A stretch of 38,529 nucleotides of DNA from a virus (lineage: Duplodnaviria; Caudoviricetes). The notes beneath the pieces are model-generated. The model saw only the letters and a list, made by a program, of their open reading frames with translations, was not told the DNA's origin and ran no database searches. This document shows, piece by piece, positions 1,243 to 37,555 of this stretch. The stretch covers positions 1 to 38,529 of IMG/VR virus record IMGVR_UViG_3300012940_000053; one strand, written 5' to 3'. The position numbers and the translations under genes are program-made. The number at the start of each line of letters is the position of its first letter. The first letter of the stretch is position 1.

Positions 1243-1410
1243 ATGATTGCAGTTGGACAGCATGAGTTGGCAGAACATGTCCGTGAAGAATTGATTGGAT
1301 TCGGCTTTATTTGTAAGGATTACGAGGCAGAACTTATTGCGTGGATCATGCTGAAATGGCTGATAGAAAAAGGCGCGGCAACAGGGGAGTTGAGAAGCGT
1401 TGATTTGTAA
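1243..1410 (+). CDS. Small protein (55 aa), possibly YozD-like
   Basis: Below ORF-track cutoff; RBS GGGAGGG; MIAVGQHELAEHVREELIGFGF..WLIEKG; similarity to YozD is from memory. Confidence 0.6.
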   Translation: MIAVGQHELAEHVREELIGFGFICKDYEAELIAWIMLKWLIEKGAATGELRSVDL

Positions 1411-2209
1411 AAATTGTCACACATCTGAAATGGTCGTTCCTATGAACGGCCATATTGCTTATCTGGAATGTCCGGCTTGTGGCTGTATTGAGCTTACATA
1501 TGTGCCGCAAGATTACCAGCAAAAGATGCACGAAGTACCAATAGTTGAAGTGTGGGATGATGAGCTTAAAGAATGGCGTTTACAAGCTCAAGTCATTGGT
1601 GTATTCGGGGGCTATGGCTCAGGAAAATCGCGTACCAGTTTAGCAGAAATCTTCTTACGGGCGATGAACAATCCGAGAGGGACCGGGCTGCTCACAGCAC
1701 CCACTTTACAACAGCTTAAACGGACAACACTTAAGACATTTTTTCATGAAGTTTGCCCGCCGCCGTTGATCGAAAGTTATAATAAATCGGATGGAGAGAT
1801 TAAACTTGTTAACGGGTTTGTTTTCTACACGATTCCATCAGACGATGAGGAAAAGATTCGGTCAATTAATGCCGGTCTTATCCACATGGAAGAAGCGTCT
1901 GGTATCAAGCGTTCAATCTATGACCAGCTTCTTACTCGAATGCGCGATCCTTTTGTACACGATCGCCTGTTTATGGTATGTTCTAACCCTGATTTGGGAT
2001 GGATTAAGGATGTCTTTGCTGACAATATCTCAAGAGCGAATCCTGAGCATCCCGATCATGCTAATTATAATCCTTTTATTACGACTTTTGTATGGCAGAC
2101 GTCGCTGAATAAATACCTACCGCCAGACTTCATTGAACTGAACTGTGCAGGTAAGCCGGATTGGTGGATTGCGCGGTATATGAATGGTAGTTTCGAGCAT
2201 GCAGAGGGT
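1400..2209 (+). CDS. terL: Terminase large subunit, exon 1 (Zn ribbon + ATPase)
   Basis: CKNC/CPAC; Walker A GGYGSGKS; Walker B IHMEEAS; coupling motif CSNP; ends ..GSFEHAEG at intron 5' splice site. Confidence 0.92.
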
Positions 2210-2462
2210 AAACGAAAACCTGCCCTCTATAAACACAACAAAATCGGTGAAACCCTGACCGCATAATGGCGAAGGCAATGCCGAGGACAAGCTACACATT
2301 GTAGGTTGATTTCATTAGTGACATGTGTAGAAATCCGTAACGACTAGATGGTTGTGCATAGCCTAACCAGCTATGAAGATATAGTCTGATCTGCATGGAA
2401 ACATGCAGAGGTCGCAGAAATGACGGCCCGCCTACAGATGTAGGTTAACAAGTAACAGTATG
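2210..2462 (+). ncRNA. Group I self-splicing intron without ORF (253 nt)
   Basis: P1 AGAGGGU/GCCCUCU with U.G at splice site; P AAAUCGGUGAAA; Q GGCAAUGCCGAG; R GUAACGACUA; S AAGAUAUAGUCU; P3 CACAAC/GUUGUG; P9 CUGCAUG-GAAA-CAUGCAG; terminal G; removal restores frame. Confidence 0.93.
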
Positions 2463-3185
2463 ATGGTTTATCCGAACTTTGCGAAGTGCTTGAAAGAGTC
2501 TGCTGATTGGTTCAAAGAGCGTGGCATTCCGGGCATCCCGGACTCGTGGGTAAAGTTCGTCAATTTGGATCACGGCTTGCGTAATCCAACAGCCGTATAT
2601 TGGAGCGCAATAGACCCGGATCGGAACCTTGTTGTGACCTACGACGAGTATTATAAACCCGGTCTGGTGCCGGATCATGCGCCGGTTATCAAGCCGAAGA
2701 TCGATGCAATTTCTTCAGGTCGTCTTCAATTTATGGTAGCTGACCCATCGATACGCAATAAAACAGACCCCATTAATGGTAAGTCTGTTCAGTCTATTTA
2801 TCAGGAGTACGGCCTCTATTTTTCGGAAGGAAACAATTCGCTGGACATGGGTTTAATGAAGGTTAATTCGTACATAAATCGCGGTAAGTGGGTGATTCTC
2901 AAGGACAAATGCCCGAATCTTGCCCGCGAAGGCATAGGCTATAAATACCCGGAATTATCGATGGATGACAAGAAAAATCCTGACGAGAAGCCGGAGAAGA
3001 AGAATGACCATGCCATGGACTCTATGCGCTACGGGTTTGCTCGTCTGCCGGATGATCCCGATCAATTAAAAACCATTGCAGGGGAGCCGCCAAAGAAGTA
3101 TACTAAGGAAGATGAAGATAGTGTATACGATGATGAGTATGATGACGAATACGAAAACGGTCGTGATTATCTGAGCTACGTGTAA
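2463..3185 (+). CDS. terL: Terminase large subunit, exon 2 (RNase H-like nuclease); spliced protein about 510 aa
   Basis: MVYPNF continues EG; motifs NLDHGLRNPT, ADPS, NDHAMDSMRY. Confidence 0.92.
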   Translation: MVYPNFAKCLKESADWFKERGIPGIPDSWVKFVNLDHGLRNPTAVYWSAIDPDRNLVVTYDEYYKPGLVPDHAPVIKPKIDAISSGRLQFMVADPSIRNKTDPINGKSVQSIYQEYGLYFSEGNNSLDMGLMKVNSYINRGKWVILKDKCPNLAREGIGYKYPELSMDDKKNPDEKPEKKNDHAMDSMRYGFARLPDDPDQLKTIAGEPPKKYTKEDEDSVYDDEYDDEYENGRDYLSYV

Positions 3186-5490: not shown

Positions 5491-5781
5491 ATGAATTTTG
5501 GAGAAGCGTTGATTGAACTGAAGAATGGAAATAAAGTCGCCCGCGCAGGCTGGAATGGCAGGGGGATGTGGATTGTCATGATGCCGTCCCTTTATCTGCC
5601 GCCCCACAATACACAGGAGCCGGGCGCAAAAGTGAATGATCGAACAGCTAAACACATAGGCGAAGATACGCCGTTGGACAGCCAGCCGTACATTGCCATG
5701 TGGACTGCCGCACAACAATGGCAACCCGGCTGGCTGGCATCGCAAGCTGATCTTTTCGCTGAGGATTGGCAAGTCGTTTAA
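5491..5781 (+). CDS. tad2: DUF2829 / Thoeris anti-defence 2 (Tad2)-like protein
   Basis: MNFGEAL..LKNGNKVARAGWNG..PYIAM..GWLASQADLFAEDWQVV signature. Confidence 0.85.
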   Translation: MNFGEALIELKNGNKVARAGWNGRGMWIVMMPSLYLPPHNTQEPGAKVNDRTAKHIGEDTPLDSQPYIAMWTAAQQWQPGWLASQADLFAEDWQVV

Positions 5782-6110
5782 AGCCAGCGGACACCGCTTG
5801 GCGTACAGGAATCCATTATTAAATGAAGAAACACGCCAGCAGCCAGCGCGATACCGGCCATGGGATGCCATAAGCTGCCTGCAATTGCAAAGCAAACCAG
5901 CATGAACCATACCGAATGAACCGCCCCTCTGTGCCGAAACCATAGCCAGAGGGGTAAAATTTTGCCTATTAAGGATCGTCGGTGGTCGGCATCCGGTAGA
6001 ATACAGCCAAGCAGAAACAAGATTGGGTTTAAAAATAAGTCGCCGTTTGCTAGTAACAACCAGAGGCCAATGCCTGCATACAGATGGATTTTCCCGCTGA
6101 AAGCAACCAC
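5778..6110 (-). CDS. YdjM-like membrane-associated metal-dependent hydrolase
   Basis: GKIH, LPDADH, HRGAVHS and HLIMDSCTPSGV motifs plus hydrophobic segments; exact start uncertain (GTG abuts RBS). Confidence 0.85.
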   Translation of the reverse strand: MVAFSGKIHLYAGIGLWLLLANGDLFLNPILFLLGCILPDADHRRSLIGKILPLWLWFRHRGAVHSVWFMLVCFAIAGSLWHPMAGIALAAGVFLHLIMDSCTPSGVRWL

Positions 6111-6129
6111 CCTCCTTCTTCAGTTCCTT

Positions 6130-6159
6130 TAGTATACCCAACTCATTTAGGATGTATTC
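6130..6159 (-). promoter_or_regulatory. Putative sigmaF/sigmaG (forespore) promoter for the YdjM-like gene
   Basis: Minus strand GAATA-N15-GGGTATACTA versus sigmaF consensus GYATA-N15-GGnnAnAHTR; also TGAATA-N18-TATACTA for sigmaG. Confidence 0.65.
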
Positions 6160-8862: not shown

Positions 8863-9424
8863 TGTAGGCGTTCAGGAAGTAGAGGCCGGTTCGGTCTACA
8901 CATGGGGGTATGCAAACGGGTATGGTGGCGCGTCTGGAATAAAAGGCGATGTATCAGACTGGCTGTTTGCGAAAGGCACGGATGAAAGTGCGCTTGCCAA
9001 TGGAACGACACTTTACGCCGGAATTGCAACGTCGCAAATTGCGCAGTTTCTTGGTTTTCAAGGGGTTTCTACTTCGGGCAGTACATGGATTGCAGTTCCA
9101 ATTGCAGCGGCGGGCTATCGAACTTTTCGAGTAAATATGACCGGCAATCTGAATCAAGATGTTAATGTAACTGGATGGTTGATGCCAGATGCTAATGGTG
9201 AATTTAATGGAATCAATATCTCTACATCCGGTGGTCCATTGTTTGCTCAAGCCGTTGTAACTGCTGAAGTATTAAATTCGTCTGCACCCTTGCAGTTTGG
9301 ACCGGGCGGCAAGGACTTGACGGTGTTTTATGCTGGCCCTATTGGGTGGCTGGTTCTTCAGATCGCAAAAACAACAAACCCGACAAGCGGCAATCTACGT
9401 GTCGGTGTAGAGCGGCAAAGATAA
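8843..9424 (+). CDS. Hypothetical virion protein
   Basis: RBS AAGGAGG; G/T/N-rich beta-type sequence in structural operon. Confidence 0.7.
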   Translation: MAQKKYNVGVQEVEAGSVYTWGYANGYGGASGIKGDVSDWLFAKGTDESALANGTTLYAGIATSQIAQFLGFQGVSTSGSTWIAVPIAAAGYRTFRVNMTGNLNQDVNVTGWLMPDANGEFNGINISTSGGPLFAQAVVTAEVLNSSAPLQFGPGGKDLTVFYAGPIGWLVLQIAKTTNPTSGNLRVGVERQR

Positions 9425-10524
9425 TGACACACTACAACCCGTTTGGTGTCCATTACTACCCCGGCAAAGCTGCTGGTCCGGTAGAGGGGGTAGTGCGCGG
9501 AGGCTTTCGTTACACAAGTTCAATTGATTCGATCAATAACTTATATGCACATTATGCTTTTGATAACCGCGAAACAGATTTGCCAATCGTTGTTTTGATG
9601 CATGGTTATGATCAAGACGCTTCAACAATGACAAGCTTCATTATGACTGACATGGCAAATTATGGCTTGTTTGCTGTAGCAGTAGGAATGCGCGGACGTA
9701 ACGGAGCGGGCGGGACTCGCGACACTTGCGGACGAGAAACTTACGACATTATCGACGCTGTTGAGTACGTGAAGGCTGCTTTTTCTGACTACGTAAACCC
9801 GGCGAATGTTAATGTTGTTGGATATTCTGGTGGCGGTGGAAACGTGTTCGGCATTGCAGCTAAATTTCCTGATTATTTTAACGTCATGGTATCGCATTTT
9901 GGTATCGCTGATTATGGATACGATGATGAGGATAGCTGGTATGTAACCAATCCCACTCGGCGATCCAGCATTGAGCAATGGATCGGAGGGACACCTTCTT
10001 CAGTTCCGGGCAATTATCAATCCCGCGCTTCACAGTTTGCAATCCCGGTCAATCTGCTTGGAGGTCATCTGTTTATGTTCCATGACTCGGCTGATACAAA
10101 CGTACCTGTTATACAATCACAGATGGTGGCCGATGGTATGGACGGTGTAACAAATACACGATATACGCTTAGTGTTACCGATCCGGGCGATGACCCGCGA
10201 TGGTTGCATGCCAGTCCAGACGCCAATCAGCCGGTTCGTTTAACGCGAGAGATGTGGGGACCGCCGATTTTGGCATTAGATAACCCGCAATGGGCTGTTG
10301 CTGATACCGGCAGTATGAAGGTTAATGGCTATTTAGTAACGAAGAAGTTTTCTATTTGGCTTGGTACAGGCGTAACGGACGTTGCTGATGTAGACTACAA
10401 TGTCACATCCGGTGAGTATACAATAACGCCACTGACAGGTCCTCTTGATGTATTAATTACACAGGGGGGATTGACTGGATCGGCGTCTGCAATTACGGCA
10501 GAAACAACGATTACAGTTACGTAA
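9424..10524 (+). CDS. Alpha/beta-hydrolase (esterase or S9 peptidase-like)
   Basis: VLMHGY oxyanion motif, GYSGGG nucleophile elbow, FHDSADTNVP acid motif, later His; TAATG overlap gives start 9424. Confidence 0.8.
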   Translation: MTHYNPFGVHYYPGKAAGPVEGVVRGGFRYTSSIDSINNLYAHYAFDNRETDLPIVVLMHGYDQDASTMTSFIMTDMANYGLFAVAVGMRGRNGAGGTRDTCGRETYDIIDAVEYVKAAFSDYVNPANVNVVGYSGGGGNVFGIAAKFPDYFNVMVSHFGIADYGYDDEDSWYVTNPTRRSSIEQWIGGTPSSVPGNYQSRASQFAIPVNLLGGHLFMFHDSADTNVPVIQSQMVADGMDGVTNTRYTLSVTDPGDDPRWLHASPDANQPVRLTREMWGPPILALDNPQWAVADTGSMKVNGYLVTKKFSIWLGTGVTDVADVDYNVTSGEYTITPLTGPLDVLITQGGLTGSASAITAETTITVT

Positions 10525-24148: not shown

Positions 24149-24177
24149 AATATAGCATATTACACATAGCATGTCAA
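24149..24177 (-). promoter_or_regulatory. Putative sigmaA promoter (leftward)
   Basis: TTGACA-N17-TATATT with extended TG. Confidence 0.7.
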
Positions 24178-24205
24178 CATATTCCTGATATATTCGGCAT
24201 ACACT
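24177..24205 (+). promoter_or_regulatory. Putative sigmaE (mother cell) promoter of the FtsK-relaxase pair
   Basis: ACATATT-N14-CATACACT versus sigmaE consensus (t/k)CATATT-N14-CATACAnT; RBS AGGAGG follows. Confidence 0.7.
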
Positions 24206-24224
24206 ATATCAGGAGGCGATTATC

Positions 24225-25406
24225 ATGTTGACCCTTGCAGGCGCGGCGCTTGTCGCAGCGTCAGGAGTGGGCCTGATACAGAACAGGCCGAAAGCGATCA
24301 TCAGGAAACAGCTTGTGCGATATTTCCGATCCTGCAAGCTACCGGAAGTTTCCGTGCGCCGGATTACGCGCCACGGCGCTACGTATGCGGTGCGAATCAC
24401 CTTACCCTACGGAGTGACGGTTGAAAAGTTCCAATCGCATCTGCCCGGTATGGAGCAGGCTGTAGCGGCTCCGATCAAACTGAAACATGTGTTCGGTGCT
24501 ACCTGTGAACTTACCCTAGGCTATGCGCCCTTCTTCGAAAAGGTCAGCTACACGGATCGACTACCCCGCAACGGCCTCACCGTACCGCTCATGACACCAT
24601 TCGGCACCCGATTCCTCGACTTCTCAGATGAAACATGCTGCCATTTGCTTACCGGAGGGGCAACTCGAATGGGAAAAAGCGCTTTAATCCGATTGATCGC
24701 AACGCATTTAACACTTTCATTAGACGGAAATTTGCAGATAAAGATGATCAATAATAAAGTTACAGACCTCTACATGTTTCGCGGTGTTCCGCACATTGAA
24801 GTTGCTGAAACGGATCGTGAAGCATTGGCTGTTTTGGAGCAGGCACTTGACGAAGCTAAACGTAGAAAGTCGCTGTTAAAATCAAAGAAAAATGTGGTTG
24901 ATGCTAAGCAATTTAGACAACGGTACCCTGATGAAAAAATGGAGCCTGTCTTTATCATTATAGACGAATACGGGCGCTTTGCCGACAACAAGGCAATTCA
25001 GAATGCGGTGACTGAATTGGCTGAAACCGCTGGCTATCTCGATATTCACTTGATCATATCTAGCCAGCGGCCCGATGCCAAAGATGTTTTGAAGCCTCGA
25101 ATAAAGGCCAATATATTAACAAGGATTGCTTTTTCTACCACCGACGAAACCAACTCCATGATTATACTGGATTCGCCTGAGGCTGCGCACCTTGGGAAGA
25201 TACAGGGCCGAGCCTATTTGCTCGATGGATTCCTTGAAAAAGTTCAGGTTCCCTACATGTCACCGGAACAAGTTGTTACGTTGCTTGAGCCGTACCGAAA
25301 GGAGGAAGGAACTGAAGATGATGCTCCGCGATCAGAGGATATTGAAGCTCCTGAAGCACTTCCGAGTTTTATCTCGGGATCAACTGGCTTCACTGACCTG
25401 TCCTGA
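24225..25406 (+). CDS. FtsK/SpoIIIE-family ATPase with N-terminal membrane anchor
   Basis: HLLTGGATRMGKS Walker A, IIIDEY Walker B, SSQRPDA, IKANI..RIAF, GRA; hydrophobic N-terminus; no gamma domain evident. Confidence 0.9.
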   Translation: MLTLAGAALVAASGVGLIQNRPKAIIRKQLVRYFRSCKLPEVSVRRITRHGATYAVRITLPYGVTVEKFQSHLPGMEQAVAAPIKLKHVFGATCELTLGYAPFFEKVSYTDRLPRNGLTVPLMTPFGTRFLDFSDETCCHLLTGGATRMGKSALIRLIATHLTLSLDGNLQIKMINNKVTDLYMFRGVPHIEVAETDREALAVLEQALDEAKRRKSLLKSKKNVVDAKQFRQRYPDEKMEPVFIIIDEYGRFADNKAIQNAVTELAETAGYLDIHLIISSQRPDAKDVLKPRIKANILTRIAFSTTDETNSMIILDSPEAAHLGKIQGRAYLLDGFLEKVQVPYMSPEQVVTLLEPYRKEEGTEDDAPRSEDIEAPEALPSFISGSTGFTDLS

Positions 25407-25881
25407 AGTAGCCCGGCCAGTCGTCACCATCAATCGCGTTCTGAAACGGCTTGCCAGAGATGGGTATATTCTTCAGATTCCTCAAGTACGGGATCGGCCA
25501 TACTTATATATGCCGAACCCGTCAATCATCCACCCGCAGTCAAATAAAATATCACATTTCATCGCCATTGCTGATCTATACATTGGCCTGAAACAACCCA
25601 AAGTCTTTGAAGTGGAGCCGGTGATAAATGATGATTTTCGCCCTGATGCTTATGTCCGTGATATCTCTTTACCTAGCCCTGTTCTCGTCGAAGTCCAAAG
25701 GACCGTGATTAGTACGAAGAAAATGCAGGCAAAAGTCGATGAGTTTGTGAAGTCGTATCTGAAGAAACAACATGACGCCAAAGCCCTTTGGATCATATCG
25801 GATGTCGAGTATCGACTTGATATTCCAGAGGGCTTCAGCGTCATCCATCAGAAGCCGTTTAGAATGGATATTGCGCATTGA
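25318..25881 (+). CDS. Replication-relaxation (Replic_Relax) family protein
   Basis: RDQRILKLL..LSRDQL wHTH, NRVLKRL, HFIAIAD, RPDAY..LVEVQ PD-(D/E)xK-like core; RBS AAGGAGG; overlaps ATPase gene by 89 nt. Confidence 0.8.
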   Translation: MMLRDQRILKLLKHFRVLSRDQLASLTCPEVARPVVTINRVLKRLARDGYILQIPQVRDRPYLYMPNPSIIHPQSNKISHFIAIADLYIGLKQPKVFEVEPVINDDFRPDAYVRDISLPSPVLVEVQRTVISTKKMQAKVDEFVKSYLKKQHDAKALWIISDVEYRLDIPEGFSVIHQKPFRMDIAH

Positions 25882-28847: not shown

Positions 28848-31696
28848 AACGGTGGACCTCCTTGTTGGCTTAATGGGATCATTCGGTCTGCATCTGCATT
28901 GCTGCGATATACCTCAACCGCCTTACGTAAGCGCCTTGTTGGCAAAAATCCCTGTGCGCTCACCGTAACCAGATAGTTACTGCTGAGTTCACCCATTAGC
29001 TTATTAAATTCATTGTTTTCCAAACCGGATATAGCCTGAAGATTGAACCTCGGGAACGGTGCTGTTGAATTTAACAACGCTCGAATTACCGTAGGTTTTG
29101 TTCGGCACATTCCCTCAACAATTGTGTTCACCGCATCGTTTGTTTCGTTGTAGGCTTTTCTGTCCCGTACGTAGTCAGCCAAGCGAAAAAAGTTGTTGTC
29201 GTAGCAATCAGTGAGGAAACGAGCAGCCCAATCAACATGACGCTTAGAAACAACAAGAAGTTGACCATCAGCAGAGGAACTGAAGCAACACCCCGCACAA
29301 GCCACCGCAATACGAGCAAGCTTTTTCCAAGCCTCTGCGCCGAAAAACTTAACGTCCGTATTGTACTTTTCGTTAAGTTCTTGCGATACATGCCATACAT
29401 AAGACTCAACTCCTTCTTCCCATACAACTTGTTCCGGCGTTCGGCTCCACACCCAATAAATAAGATTGCGGTAATCAATCGAGTCGTATGCCTTAGTAGT
29501 AATCTCCGTAAGTGGCGAGATGTATTCGCCTTCAGCCACAAGTAAAATAAAGTCGAAACGAGCGATGTCTTCCGTTGCTCCCACAAGATCGTTTACAATA
29601 CTTACGCCAGATGGATAGTCGATAACAGAAGCATTATGCCCATCACCATTCTTGCGCGGGTTTGATAACCACATCATACGTGTGTTCGCTGGAGCTTTGC
29701 CCTTTGCCACTTTACTCACTGTCGCCACACCCGAAGACCGCATATCAGTTAGAGAGGCGATGACATCGAGGCCGCAATCCGACATCTCATCAAGAAATAC
29801 GACACTTTTATTGTTGCGCGGAATCACACCCCATGTAATCTTATGACCGCCTGTTGGCAGCTTCTCAACACCACCCAATAGACCGGCTGTTGTTGCCCGC
29901 TTGACGGATGTAAAGTTGCCAAGCTGATAATACCGAACCAAGCTTTGTGCGACATCGGATTTACCTGTTCGCGTGTCCCCCACAACTAAGCCTTCGGGGT
30001 ACCCCTTAATCATCTTGCCGTTGTATATAAATTTAAGTGGCGAATGAAACATAAGATCGCAACCGTTGACAATCGTGTCGCGGGCAAATGGGCCGATAAT
30101 ATCTTTCGCCATTTCTGCTCGATGCGGCATCATCTCAAATGGATCGCCGGTAAATTTCTTCAGTTCCTCCTGAATACTCTCCGTCATCTTGAACATGTTG
30201 ATACCAATATCAGAGTCTTCAACGTGATCGACAACCAAGAACACGCGCTGTCCGTTATTCGGATGCGGAAAGACACGAAAGAACGCTCGATATCGAGAAC
30301 CCTCAATCATATCTGTTCCAATGACATAAGCGTATTGTTCTGTTGCTCGAAAGTCTTCTAACGATTCGGTTTCCACATCCGGCGTTAAAATCACCTTCTG
30401 AACATCTTGCAATGCTCGAATATGGACTGTCCCATTAGGACACTTATCGGGCCTATTTAGTGTCATATTAATTGCATTTATTTGTTGTTTCTCATTGACT
30501 TCTGTGAAGCGTAAAACAGTCTTCATGTTGTCTTCATCCAGCGTCCACCACCGCGATTTTGGATCAACATTGTCTTTCGCTAAAGGACAGCCATAACAAG
30601 GGCTTTTGCCTTCGTCATCTAACTTCGCTCCATTACAGCGCCATTCAATAGCTGAAGGAACTTGCATGGCTTGATCGTAAGTACCCGACAAAACCACTCG
30701 TGAACTACGATGTTGCCCGGAGTGCTTACCTTGGGGAACCTCCCATAGTTCAATAAGTGGGTAGTGTTGGTTTTTATCCTCTAAGTATAGCTCCCCTGTG
30801 TACAACGCCGCTGCCTTGATTCGAGCGTTTAATTCTTCAGTTCCCCAACCATGCTTGACAACAAAATCGGTGATGTCCTTATCATCTTTTGTTCCCGGTA
30901 GCTCAAGATCGACAATATAAACAGTAGCTCCAGCTTCCCGTAATCGGAATGCTACAGATCGGACCGCCTTTCGTCCTGCACTATCGCAGTCGAAGCACAT
31001 GTAGACGGTTCGCCCTTTGAATAATCCAGCCAGCATCTTCGGAAACGTGCCTTCGCCGCCCGTTACCGTAACTGCATTGTAGCCCATCTGTCGAGCTAAA
31101 AGACAATCATTCTCACCAGCTACGAACAATGTAGGTTGCGGATCGACAATCCATTCATCAAATGGGTACAGCCAAGGCTTTGCGCCCGGTTTTGATCGCA
31201 TCTTTGGTTTGCCGCCCGGATCGTAGGTTCGAACATCTACCAGATGCCAGAACATTTTAACGGGGTATCCAATACCGTCACCAGTGAATCCAAGCGAATA
31301 CTTTCCAATGGTTTTATTCATGATCCCGCGATCATTTAGGTACTCTACAGCGGGTTTGTTTTCATACAAAAGGCGTTGAAGGCGCTCCCACTCATCGTCA
31401 TCATATAACTCATGGTTGTTCAGCATGCCTTCGAGGTATAAAGCTTGATCGTACGTGAGGTTGTAAGCTTTGGCAAGAAAGTTGGTTTCTGACAATCCCC
31501 CTTCGTTAAAACGACCCTCGGCTTGGCATGTTTTGCAATGGAACAATCCCTTTTTGGGATTGACATGCGCCGAGGGCCGTGTCTCATATCCTTTGTCGTG
31601 CGGAAACGGGCATATGACAGGAATTTCACCTTGCGAATTTTCTTCATACGGCCCGCGAGGTTTAAAGAAATACTCGAAGATCATACCTCTATACAT
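28844..31696 (-). CDS. Primase-helicase fusion: Zn finger + TOPRIM + MCM-like AAA+
   Basis: CPFPH..HCKTC; GENDC and FDCD TOPRIM; GDTRTGKS, TTAGL, FLDEM, SNP, ARFD MCM motifs. Confidence 0.88.
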   Translation of the reverse strand: MYRGMIFEYFFKPRGPYEENSQGEIPVICPFPHDKGYETRPSAHVNPKKGLFHCKTCQAEGRFNEGGLSETNFLAKAYNLTYDQALYLEGMLNNHELYDDDEWERLQRLLYENKPAVEYLNDRGIMNKTIGKYSLGFTGDGIGYPVKMFWHLVDVRTYDPGGKPKMRSKPGAKPWLYPFDEWIVDPQPTLFVAGENDCLLARQMGYNAVTVTGGEGTFPKMLAGLFKGRTVYMCFDCDSAGRKAVRSVAFRLREAGATVYIVDLELPGTKDDKDITDFVVKHGWGTEELNARIKAAALYTGELYLEDKNQHYPLIELWEVPQGKHSGQHRSSRVVLSGTYDQAMQVPSAIEWRCNGAKLDDEGKSPCYGCPLAKDNVDPKSRWWTLDEDNMKTVLRFTEVNEKQQINAINMTLNRPDKCPNGTVHIRALQDVQKVILTPDVETESLEDFRATEQYAYVIGTDMIEGSRYRAFFRVFPHPNNGQRVFLVVDHVEDSDIGINMFKMTESIQEELKKFTGDPFEMMPHRAEMAKDIIGPFARDTIVNGCDLMFHSPLKFIYNGKMIKGYPEGLVVGDTRTGKSDVAQSLVRYYQLGNFTSVKRATTAGLLGGVEKLPTGGHKITWGVIPRNNKSVVFLDEMSDCGLDVIASLTDMRSSGVATVSKVAKGKAPANTRMMWLSNPRKNGDGHNASVIDYPSGVSIVNDLVGATEDIARFDFILLVAEGEYISPLTEITTKAYDSIDYRNLIYWVWSRTPEQVVWEEGVESYVWHVSQELNEKYNTDVKFFGAEAWKKLARIAVACAGCCFSSSADGQLLVVSKRHVDWAARFLTDCYDNNFFRLADYVRDRKAYNETNDAVNTIVEGMCRTKPTVIRALLNSTAPFPRFNLQAISGLENNEFNKLMGELSSNYLVTVSAQGFLPTRRLRKAVEVYRSNADADRMIPLSQQGGPPF

Positions 31697-31713
31697 GCCG
31701 CCTATCTCCTTTC

Positions 31714-31856
31714 AATTCGCCCGCTTGGGGCCAGCGACACAATCTACGATGCAAGGCTTCTGCCACAGGCTGCGCATCCACCTATGGATAGCTATTCTTG
31801 CATCGATCTTGCGATTGTGCCCGGCCCCAAAAGGGCGAATTTGCCCCTTCGCCCTT
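31714..31856 (-). ncRNA. Long structured element upstream of the primase-helicase RBS
   Basis: Four nested helices of 9, 8, 7 and 9 bp plus apical hairpin; competing 9-bp hairpin at 31831-31856. Confidence 0.6.
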
Positions 31857-31871
31857 CTGGTTTACGCCGAA

Positions 31872-32081
31872 TTATTCAGCGGCTTCTTCAGGTGCTTCTT
31901 CGTCGGTTTCTTCCTCAATTTCCTCGCCACGCGAGAGGGCTTCCAGCTTGCGACATTCAGCTTCATAAGCGTCTTGCTTTTCATCAAAAGCTTTCTCAGC
32001 GCGATCTACTGCCCGCTTGGTAGCGGAAACCTTTGCGAGTTGTTTTTTCAAGGCTTCAACGTTAACTGTCATGATAATCAT
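31872..32081 (-). CDS. Small coiled-coil protein with acidic tail
   Basis: RBS AAAGGAG; 69 aa (start may be the second Met). Confidence 0.7.
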   Translation of the reverse strand: MIIMTVNVEALKKQLAKVSATKRAVDRAEKAFDEKQDAYEAECRKLEALSRGEEIEEETDEEAPEEAAE

Positions 32082-36473: not shown

Positions 36474-36503
36474 ATTTTACCACATAACATGTGAAATATG
36501 CAA
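36474..36503 (-). promoter_or_regulatory. Putative sigmaA promoter with operator-like palindrome in spacer
   Basis: TTGCAT-N18-TAAAAT with TG extension; CACATAACATGTG at 36481-36493. Confidence 0.7.
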
Positions 36504-36521: not shown

Positions 36522-37022
36522 TTATATCCGCTCAGCCTCAAATTTTCGCACATTCTCAGCGGCATCTTCTACTGAATCAAAAGTGCCAATGTAATAAACA
36601 TTCCCATCTATAGTTTTTGAAGCTCTATATCTGCCATTTGACAGTGGAAAAACATTCTTATACCCAGTCCTGTTTTTACTGTACTTTCGTTTATTTTTCA
36701 AATTCGTATAGTTTGTACATACTTTTAAATTCAGATCAGTATTATCGAGTCCATTATGGTTACCGTGATCGACAACTAAATCATCAGGACAATTTGTAAT
36801 AAACCTATGGAGAAATGTCTTGCGGCCATCTTTTAAGCGTACTTTACAATAATTGGTATAGCTATTACTTACGATGTACATTTGCTCCACGTTTTCTATT
36901 ACACGGTTAAGCTTACTCAGATTGATCTTTACAATATAAAATCGAAGTCCAATTTCACCCTTTTTAGGCCGTTTAAATACTTCAAATTCAACAGTATCAC
37001 CTTTTACTTCATACTTCAGCAT
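36522..37022 (-). CDS. Free-standing HNH-AP2 homing endonuclease
   Basis: LHRFI..VVDHGNHNGLDN..NL..N HNH core, then TGYKNV..YIGTFDSVEDAA AP2 domain; visibly AT-rich. Confidence 0.88.
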   Translation of the reverse strand: MLKYEVKGDTVEFEVFKRPKKGEIGLRFYIVKINLSKLNRVIENVEQMYIVSNSYTNYCKVRLKDGRKTFLHRFITNCPDDLVVDHGNHNGLDNTDLNLKVCTNYTNLKNKRKYSKNRTGYKNVFPLSNGRYRASKTIDGNVYYIGTFDSVEDAAENVRKFEAERI

Positions 37023-37074
37023 ATTTCGATACCACCTTTTACATGCGATGAAATTCACGCCTGTTTAAAAATTT

Positions 37075-37318: not shown

Positions 37319-37555
37319 TTAGAATACCTCCAATATGGCCGCAGCCAATTTTAAAGCCCGCATAAACGCTTCAATGGTAATTACCCCGCCTGCCAACCAG
37401 AATAATCGATCTGAGAGGAAAGCGGCGTTGTCATATCCGCGCTTTACGAGCCATCTTTTTAGTGCTGCCGATGCGGCTCCAAGTCCCGCAACCGTCAGCA
37501 AATATTTAACGCCGGGCGCATGTAAAAATGCTTTAACAATGATGATGGCTTCCAT
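37319..37555 (-). CDS. Small membrane protein (78 aa), SpoIIIAC/AD-like pattern
   Basis: RBS GGAGGG; LLTVAGLG..L..WL..RG...A helix-hairpin pattern; family call is from memory only. Confidence 0.45.
   Translation of the reverse strand: MEAIIIVKAFLHAPGVKYLLTVAGLGAASAALKRWLVKRGYDNAAFLSDRLFWLAGGVITIEAFMRALKLAAAILEVF

Follow-up and report, generated by a model that had tools for sequence, protein, structure and literature searches.

The genome of a podovirus-like phage, IMG/VR record IMGVR_UViG_3300012940_000053, carries a two-gene unit that encodes an FtsK/TcpA-type ATPase and a Replic_Relax/MOB_C-like protein, headed by a motif that matches the consensus of the Bacillus mother-cell sigma factor, sigmaE. 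The stretch analyzed (the window) is the entire record of 38,529 nucleotides (nt), or 38.5 kb, which is ~80% complete. Judged from its promoter motif, the unit is quite likely expressed in the mother cell after septation, and on balance it may deliver phage DNA into the forespore. The cassette itself is already known; what is new is its sporulation wiring and the job proposed for it.

The sigmaE-type promoter

For sigmaE and sigmaF an assumed consensus sequence was used, the sigmaE weights were set by hand, and sites were scored against the fixed consensus (maximum 22 for sigmaE and 20.5 for sigmaF). The site before the ATPase gene scores 21, the top value over both strands of the window, with a runner-up of 18.5; no site reached 21 in 12 Markov-shuffled windows. 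A blind scan, without hand-picking, covered the 700 nt 5' of the FtsK start at 47 loci: 30 from an alignment search, after removal of seven near-duplicates, four 5'-truncated matches and the weak matches, and 17 annotated records, five of which carry other FtsK types. A sigmaE score of at least 18 was found at 20 of the 47 loci and in 7.2% of 847 control windows. At operon heads the count is 21 of 38; it is 8 of 250 for other genes and 4 of 92 for operon-first genes. This comparison is biased in favor of enrichment because the 38 heads were picked after the result of the blind scan was known. SigmaA and sigmaF scores are not enriched at these heads, and sigmaK scores are slightly raised. A sigmaK reading was rejected: the mild rise comes through the common CATA box, and the -35 element is ATA in most.

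The aligned sites follow the pattern (G/T)CATATT-14-CATAnAnT, in which both boxes are kept and the spacer varies in sequence. Kinship between loci was reduced by clustering. At 60% identity, scores of 17, 18 and 19 are reached by 25, 15 and 11 of 35 clusters in which the FtsK gene is paired with the relaxase-like partner, versus 5, 1 and 0 of 22 clusters of unpaired FtsK-like genes (p 1.7e-4). The unpaired genes are more AT-rich, yet their sigmaE scores are lower. The motif is also present in podoviruses and distant lineages, for example Bacillus subtilis phage 276BB001 (20.5), B. thuringiensis phage BMBphi (19) and Geobacillus phage PK3.6 (20.5), and it heads the FtsK operon of the Thermoanaerobacterium plasmid pMU3262 (19.5). 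Phage PK1, found via its capsid, has a score of 17 before its FtsK gene. Thus the motif is strong in the clade of the window and in a number of distant phages, whereas some of the prophage-type copies have it in weaker form or lack it. The sigmaE match proposed in the initial annotation stands, as the best site in the window and one that recurs with a free spacer before homologous operons; it has the ATA-type -35 box, fixed spacing and CATAcAnT-type -10 box of the sigmaE regulon. The conservation expected of it holds in part: the motif recurs before paired operons and mostly not before unpaired FtsK-like genes, and it is weak or absent in some prophage-type copies.

SpoIIID-like boxes near the promoters were also considered and not used. 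The pattern was an assumed one and spotted post hoc, the window has none, and counts at the 47 loci were 4 with a strict pattern (p 0.42) and 17, versus 21.5%, with a relaxed one (p 0.015).

The ATPase and its nuclease partner

The first protein matches PF01580 at 32.9 bits (cut-off 24). By hydropathy and an AlphaFold2 (AF2) model it is laid out as a hydrophobic N-terminal helix (residues 2-19), an alpha domain, a RecA-like beta domain and a disordered C-tail; the model has a predicted local distance difference test score (pLDDT) of 90.7 and the tail is disordered beyond residue 365. The Walker A motif is GGATRMGKS and Walker B is IIIDE. Residues G150, K151, D247, E248, Q281, R282 and R292, which cover the Walker motifs and the SQRP...R region, do not vary across 65 homologues. 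The best Foldseek matches are TcpA and the FtsK motor (E ~1e-22). With its RecA-like motor, intact Walker A and B motifs and alpha domain, the protein belongs to the FtsK/SpoIIIE/TcpA family, and the membrane-anchored FtsK-like ATPase of the initial annotation is borne out. It is not SpoIIIE or FtsK proper, as neither a gamma winged-helix domain nor a multi-pass N-terminal domain was seen in the AF2 model and hydropathy profile.

The partner matches PF13814 within its first 57 residues (9-57) and PHROG 2190 over residues 3-166. A winged helix (1-70) is followed by a PD-(D/E)XK-type domain, and the AF2 model has a pLDDT of 92.7. VIA-align aligns the winged helix to a winged helix-turn-helix (wHTH) domain (Z 11, root-mean-square deviation (rmsd) 1.5, 64 residues aligned). 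The stretch 79-187 aligns to AF1548 over 102 residues (Z 9.3, rmsd 3.0). Foldseek gave weak matches to NucS, FokI, Bax1 and McrC, none at E 0.001, and a sequence search with the relaxase profile matched no solved structure. Residues H80, E100, D110, E125, Q127 and K139 are invariant in an alignment of 22 homologues. The Gln at the third metal-ligand position is a variant of the DEE motif (PMC6736028). A winged helix joined to a restriction-endonuclease-type domain is the architecture of MOB_C relaxases (PMC12857230), and the partner has both parts, an N-terminal winged helix and a nuclease-type domain with conserved metal ligands. The relaxase-like character given to it initially fits a MOB_C-like protein.

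Taken together, the predicted folds fit a double-stranded DNA (dsDNA) pump and a MOB_C-like nuclease. A complex prediction for FtsK (20-365) with the relaxase-like protein scored 0.00, which weighs neither way.

Candidate DNA sites were sought as well. KOPS- or clt-like skewed words or repeat clusters were not convincing anywhere in the window. In two relatives, the temperate siphovirus BtCS33 (L106:1628-1785) and the phi29-like phage DLc1 (L115:1026-1088), iteron-like direct repeats with a 12-bp period lie in the cassette leader just behind the promoter region; these are a candidate binding site for the relaxase-like protein.

Layout of the inverted island

The coordinates are collected in Table 1. 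The initial annotation had described the motif with its own ribosome-binding site and two overlapping open reading frames (ORFs), and each was recovered in place. The overlap is 89 nt (25318-25406), and the start at 25318 agrees with the N-termini of relatives. All other plausible genes between 22964 and 38483 lie on the - strand, so the unit is indeed the only + strand island in the - strand replication arm. The GC skew switches sign near 23 kb and is about zero across the island.

Table 1. Positions of the two-gene unit, its promoters and the side genes in the window
Feature	Position	Strand	Remarks
SigmaA-type promoter, divergent	24149-24177	-	TTGACA-17-TATATT with TG extension; near-perfect
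SigmaE-type motif	24177-24205	+	-35 ACATATT (24177-24183), 14-nt spacer, -10 CATACACT (24198-24205)
Shine-Dalgarno sequence of FtsK gene	24211-24216	+	AGGAGG
FtsK/TcpA-type ATPase gene	24225-25406	+	393 amino acids (aa); PF01580 above cut-off; PHROG 1358
Replic_Relax/MOB_C-like gene	25318-25881	+	187 aa; PF13814 above cut-off; PHROG 2190
YdjM-family membrane protein gene	5778-6110	-	PF04307, E 2e-17; second inverted single-gene island
SigmaF-type motif	6130-6159	-	GAATA-15-GGGTATACTA; 19.5 of 20.5, best in window; consensus assumed
Two-helix membrane hairpin gene	37319-37555	-	78 aa; weakly SpoIIIAC/AD-like; Atlas leads only

A divergent sigmaA-type promoter, overlooked in the initial annotation, overlaps the sigmaE -35 box by one base, 24177. 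It would restart the interrupted - strand arm and serve the downstream - strand genes. It contains two TAGCAT copies (24153 and 24167), part of tandem 7-bp repeats of the form T[AG]NCA[CT] at 24153-24172. Runs of at least two such repeats occur in 11 of 28 relatives versus 1.3% of random windows, for a pattern that was derived post hoc; they lie upstream of the operon in loci L010, L019, L040, L042, L043, L044 and L050. The repeats are likely a phage regulator site rather than an origin of transfer (oriT), because a second pair recurs at another - strand promoter (36478-36500).

Pairing, neighbors and distribution

A single-sequence search for the locus in viral contigs returned nothing, and an alignment search succeeded. 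Of 133 FtsK-like loci retrieved in all, the partner lies downstream in 59 and is missing there in 55, while the other 19 are too short. Among close FtsK homologues 37 of 42 are paired and the other 5 are too short; thus every one with enough downstream DNA is paired. The related podoviruses carry the pair inverted between PolA and a gene that we take to be RuvC-like. The pair also occurs in phi29-like lytic phages (Bfsp1, DLc1), temperate phages and plasmids. A small membrane gene is usually found 5' of pumps that have no helix of their own, and a pilin-like gene lies behind the pair in 276BB001, Blastoid, PM1 and PK1. In pMU3262 the operon order is a PF06686 SpoIIIAC-family gene, a membrane gene, FtsK and Replic_Relax, with genes for Spo0E and a metal-dependent hydrolase nearby.

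By tblastn, FtsK relatives of mixed types are present in 260 phage records and 304 plasmid records of Bacillus; FtsK relatives occur in 743 plasmid records. Of 301 Bacilli genomes, 19 were matched by the relaxase profile; all 19 belong to the 211 with spoIIGA above cut-off and none to the other 90 (Fisher p 9e-4; p 0.027 for the 10 strongest matches). This is a comparison of two tables side by side, with genomes that do not count as independent and a profile derived from the partner family itself. In cultured phages 23 of 26 relaxase matches belong to Bacillus, Geobacillus or Cytobacillus phages. Two of the remaining matches (SpaA1) equal Bacillus phage BceA1 in coordinates and scores, and the third has the score of B. 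cereus phages.

Several neighbors deserve mention. In PK1 a sigmaE-type site with a score of 18 lies directly before a serine recombinase gene that adjoins the cassette (L177:10372-10514), and recombinase genes adjoin it in three more loci (L015, L146 and L154), a hint that mother-cell excision may be coupled to the pump. In a temperate subgroup (L015, L017, L021 and L048) one or two small Cys-rich (CxxC) ORFs lie between the hairpin gene and ftsK. The large Bacillus phages MarvelLand, Spock, Goe14 and Grass (L109, L114, L116 and L117) have a different FtsK-like gene, of 750 aa, which is preceded by a hydrophobic ORF of 38 aa and a gene for a multi-pass membrane protein and has no annotated relaxase-like gene beside it. 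The 750-aa FtsK of the Herelleviridae and SPbeta type and the FtsK of mycobacteriophages were set aside as other types, with no adjoining relaxase-like gene in the annotated flanks.

Relation to known systems

The pair is part of what Pathria et al. (2012) named the phage "DNA translocation operon", whose relaxase they linked to MobC of CloDF13 (PMC3357382). The members listed are 0305phi8-36 orf200/201, SPO1 gp27.3/27.4, GBSV1 and Gamma/Wbeta/Fah (PMC3357382). The window unit belongs here, having a MobC-like relaxase adjoining a translocase ATPase in a Bacillus-type phage, and GBSV1-type members were matched directly by tblastn with both window proteins. Deletion of the operon was silent in plaques and cell-to-cell spread in biofilms was suggested; the accessible text of that paper proposes biofilm transfer and mentions no sporulation promoter (PMC3357382). 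Thus the initial statement that FtsK and Replic_Relax pairs are known in Bacillus phages without a demonstrated function agrees with print, where the operon is dispensable in plaques. 0305phi8-36 and SPO1 differ in having a long VirD4-like ATPase with extra genes, whereas the window has a short FtsK/TcpA type and a single partner. The SPO1 operon is, like that of the window, an inverted island. SPO1 genes 27.3-29.1 (L175:19820-25877) comprise, besides a ParM-like gene and the pilin-like gene 29.1 (labeled by eye), three genes for small hydrophobic proteins, and a moderate sigmaE-type site (17) lies 181 nt 5' of gene 29.1. Elsewhere the cassette genes are described as a host-derived insertion (PMC7695010) and, in a genome paper on Andromeda-like phages, as plasmid-prophage relics (PMC9658697). 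In the account of Schwartz et al., spoIIIE is one of the sporulation genes carried by phages, and segregation genes may help with entrapment (PMC10294663).

The CloDF13 mobilization module consists of a coupling protein and a MOB_C relaxase (PMC3357382, PMC11389934). MobB/MobC of CloDF13 and TraX of pAD1 resemble the window unit in having their own coupling ATPase and a winged-helix PD-(D/E)XK relaxase without pore genes. The window unit differs in being phage-borne, in its FtsK/TcpA-type ATPase and sporulation-type promoter, and in the Gln that replaces the third acidic residue; neither an oriT nor a catalytic tyrosine was found in it. With B. subtilis SpoIIIE and FtsK the ATPase shares the alpha and beta motor fold (template modeling score ~0.67 to the FtsK motor) and a membrane anchor, but it has one N-terminal helix, no linker, no gamma domain, and a nuclease partner. 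Mother-cell SpoIIIE by itself is enough to move DNA into the forespore (PMC7780723). TcpA is similar to FtsK, and small Spd membrane proteins are the only helpers of TraB in carrying dsDNA across membranes (PMC12857230). TcpA from pCW3, a plasmid of Clostridium perfringens, is the top Foldseek match of the ATPase; the window is without Tcp pore genes, and TcpM of pCW3 is a tyrosine-recombinase relaxase, unlike the window partner. Streptomyces TraB, also unlike the window unit, needs no relaxase and reads the clt repeats itself.

Entrapment of phi29 and SPO1 in spores (virospores) has been described (PMC12991052). The proposed outcome is alike, a phage genome passing from mother cell to forespore. 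That route, as described, depends on 0A boxes together with segregation elements of the host, and no phage-encoded pump figures in it. The window has no parS-like site, so that the phi29 route is not evident; the raw count of exact 0A boxes is 8. No paper tying this pair to sigmaE or the forespore was found, in a search that covered few subscription journals.

The YdjM gene and the hairpin gene

Two further genes had been proposed initially as possible accessories of the pump. One, the sigmaF-type gene at 5778-6159, has a real site and encodes a YdjM-family membrane protein. YdjM-family genes are found in 7 of 10 related virus records, and a sigmaF-type score of at least 17.5 lies within 120 nt of 6 of the 7, versus 4 of 192 control genes. 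The protein is likely made in the forespore; a tie to the pump is conjectural. If the conserved site is read by sigmaF, phage DNA would be transcribed inside the forespore, and this would support a spore-entering life cycle independently, not this pump as the route.

The other, the SpoIIIAC-like gene, fared less well: the ORF exists, but the likeness is weak, no family matches, and no sigmaE site precedes it. Within the replication operon it comes after the gene for the SNF2 helicase, and is in the same place in 3 of 9 relatives tested. There was no match in Pfam (PF06686 gave none at E 1), PHROG or NCBIfam (searched for three members), no homologue in a large protein search, and no BLASTP alignment with the PF06686 protein of pMU3262. 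Against cultured phages tblastn gave one weak match for the hairpin and none for YdjM. Alignment with hhalign to the operon-linked hairpins gave a probability of 21.6%, and the structural likeness to SpoIIIAC is under the Atlas bar. Membership in the SpoIIIAC/SpoIIIAD family was rejected, as PF06686 does not match. The hairpin is no more than a candidate membrane partner of the pump.

Genome setting

Window proteins were scanned against Pfam (29) and PHROGs (20). The genes recognized are those for terminase, portal, capsid and internal virion proteins, a glycoside-hydrolase lysin and an SPP1-type holin, and PolA, a primase-MCM helicase and an SNF2 helicase; no integrase was found among the scanned proteins. 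An identical FtsK protein is present on a second, 51-kb contig. The closest cultured capsid is that of Bacillus phage PK1 (44%), and the closest cultured FtsK and relaxase-like proteins are those of Cytobacillus phage Bfsp1 (42% and 45%).

A gene resembling the Thoeris anti-defense gene Tad2 (5491-5781, + strand; PF11195, E 9e-26) lies between the portal and scaffold genes and converges with that for YdjM. The terminase large subunit is split into ORFs at 1400-2266 and 2460-3185 (+ strand; region 1400-3185), ~190 nt apart, possibly by an intron or a frameshift or as a split gene. An esterase/lipase-like gene (PHROG 789; 9346-10524) lies in the structural arm. The replication arm contains a low-GC HNH homing endonuclease gene (36522-37058, - strand), and a 175-nt gap (31696-31872) lies 5' of the primase-helicase gene.

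A model for DNA delivery and its alternatives

If sigmaE reads the motif, expression of the unit would follow septation and be confined to the mother cell. The winged helix of the partner would supply in trans the DNA recognition that SpoIIIE gets from its gamma domain, and the nuclease would make the nick or end for loading phage DNA. An N-terminally anchored hexamer would export DNA from the cell that produces it, as mother-cell SpoIIIE does, and the forespore would be the nearest membrane-apposed recipient for DNA pumped across the septal membranes. Since no type IV secretion system (T4SS) genes were found and SpoIIIE needs trapped DNA, one of two channels would have to serve. The pump may build its own pore with a small two-helix hairpin or a pilin-like partner, like TraB with the Spd proteins, or it may borrow the sigmaE-made SpoIIIA-SpoIIQ channel, as CloDF13 brings a coupling protein and MobC to the pore of its helper. 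This pore step is the weakest of the mechanism. Inside the forespore, sigmaF would turn on the YdjM-like gene. In its full form, intracellular conjugation into the spore across the closed septum by phages and plasmids of spore-formers, with a sigmaE-driven pump, nuclease and hairpin, a sigmaF-driven membrane hydrolase and possibly SpoIIIA-SpoIIQ as the mating pore, the scheme is possible but tentative.

A number of observations weigh against delivery into the forespore. Clustering at 45% identity weakens the contrast between paired and unpaired loci to 7 of 14 versus 4 of 19 at a score of at least 17 (rank p 0.03, Fisher p 0.086). Enrichment is modest in a held-out set of 13 loci, chromosomal or prophage, that were reached via the relaxase gene: 4 of 13 versus 32 of 343 windows at 18 or above (p 0.034), and 8 of 13 versus 111 of 343 at 17 or above. 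A good sigmaE-type site is absent in BtCS33, Blastoid and loci L145 and L150, and from the hairpin gene. The close relaxase subfamily has Phe where distant members carry RY (Tyr) after the acidic motif, so that a covalent tyrosine like Y181 of TraX is not evident in this comparison among partner homologues; CloDF13 MobC, for its part, makes no covalent adduct (PMC6736028). No oriT-like repeat array was found in the ~80% of the genome on record, ~20% being absent. Nor was VirB4, VirB6 or another pore gene found among the proteins scanned, and the unit is not a self-transmissible T4SS, VirB4 and mating-pore genes being missing from the window scans. SpoIIIE assembly requires DNA already trapped at the septum (PMC7780723). 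The host, presumably a spore-forming member of the Bacilli, is judged from the nearest cultured relatives, PK1 (capsid) and Bfsp1 (FtsK and relaxase-like proteins). Finally, many carriers are temperate phages that, as prophages, already travel in the chromosome of the forespore; for these the model covers only new infections and excised copies. These temperate carriers and the motif-less members call for caution.

Temperate carriers, whose forespore copy is safe already, would fit with a sigmaE-timed pump that sends phage DNA sideways out of the doomed mother cell, to neighboring cells or through a conjugative pore that is co-resident. This would put a timing on the spread between cells that Pathria et al. 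suggested. Such escape also fits the anatomy of a mobilization module (coupling protein and MOB_C relaxase, as in CloDF13), the pilin-like partners in 276BB001, Blastoid, PM1 and PK1, and the presence of FtsK relatives in 743 plasmid records. It is nevertheless unlikely: pore, hydrolase and adhesin genes were not found, the cassette is carried by the lytic phi29-like phages Bfsp1 and DLc1, and the conserved sigmaF-type site favors a presence in the forespore. The sigmaE promoter evidence also fits a sabotage of sporulation, in which the nuclease and pump would hit host DNA or the septum and stall or reverse sporulation, so that the mother cell is kept as a phage factory. SpoIIIE-type motors are able to run in either direction (PMC7780723), and phages reportedly carry genes that may either help or hinder the development of spores (PMC10294663). 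However, the winged helix and the strict gene coupling suggest a specific cis site, BtCS33 and DLc1 have the iteron-like 12-bp repeats just behind the promoter region, and a forespore-type promoter is found elsewhere in the same phages; sabotage is considered quite improbable.

The pair may also have no sporulation role and serve a plasmid-like state of the phage, in its replication, partition or resolution, the motif belonging to another sigma factor or being an AT-rich coincidence. This is the printed reading for the Andromeda-like phages (PMC9658697), some carriers lack a good site, and the scoring uses an assumed consensus with weights of our own. Coincidence is hard to reconcile with a two-box motif of fixed spacing and free spacer sequence in lineages less than 45% identical, with sigmaA scores that are not raised at operon heads, and with unpaired FtsK-like genes that score lower though more AT-rich. 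A replication role sits poorly with a phage that has its own PolA and primase-helicase, and deletion of a related operon was silent in plaques (PMC3357382). The absence of any sporulation role is, on these grounds, a rather remote prospect.

Significance

Spore entrapment of phages has long been observed, and the described route uses host segregation elements before or at septation. If delivery by the pump is true, a phage landing in the doomed mother cell after septation could still reach the spore, and a cassette of Bacillus phages and plasmids would gain a function. It might further reveal DNA traffic via the SpoIIIA-SpoIIQ channel, and it would bear on the persistence of mobile DNA in the spore banks of soil and gut.

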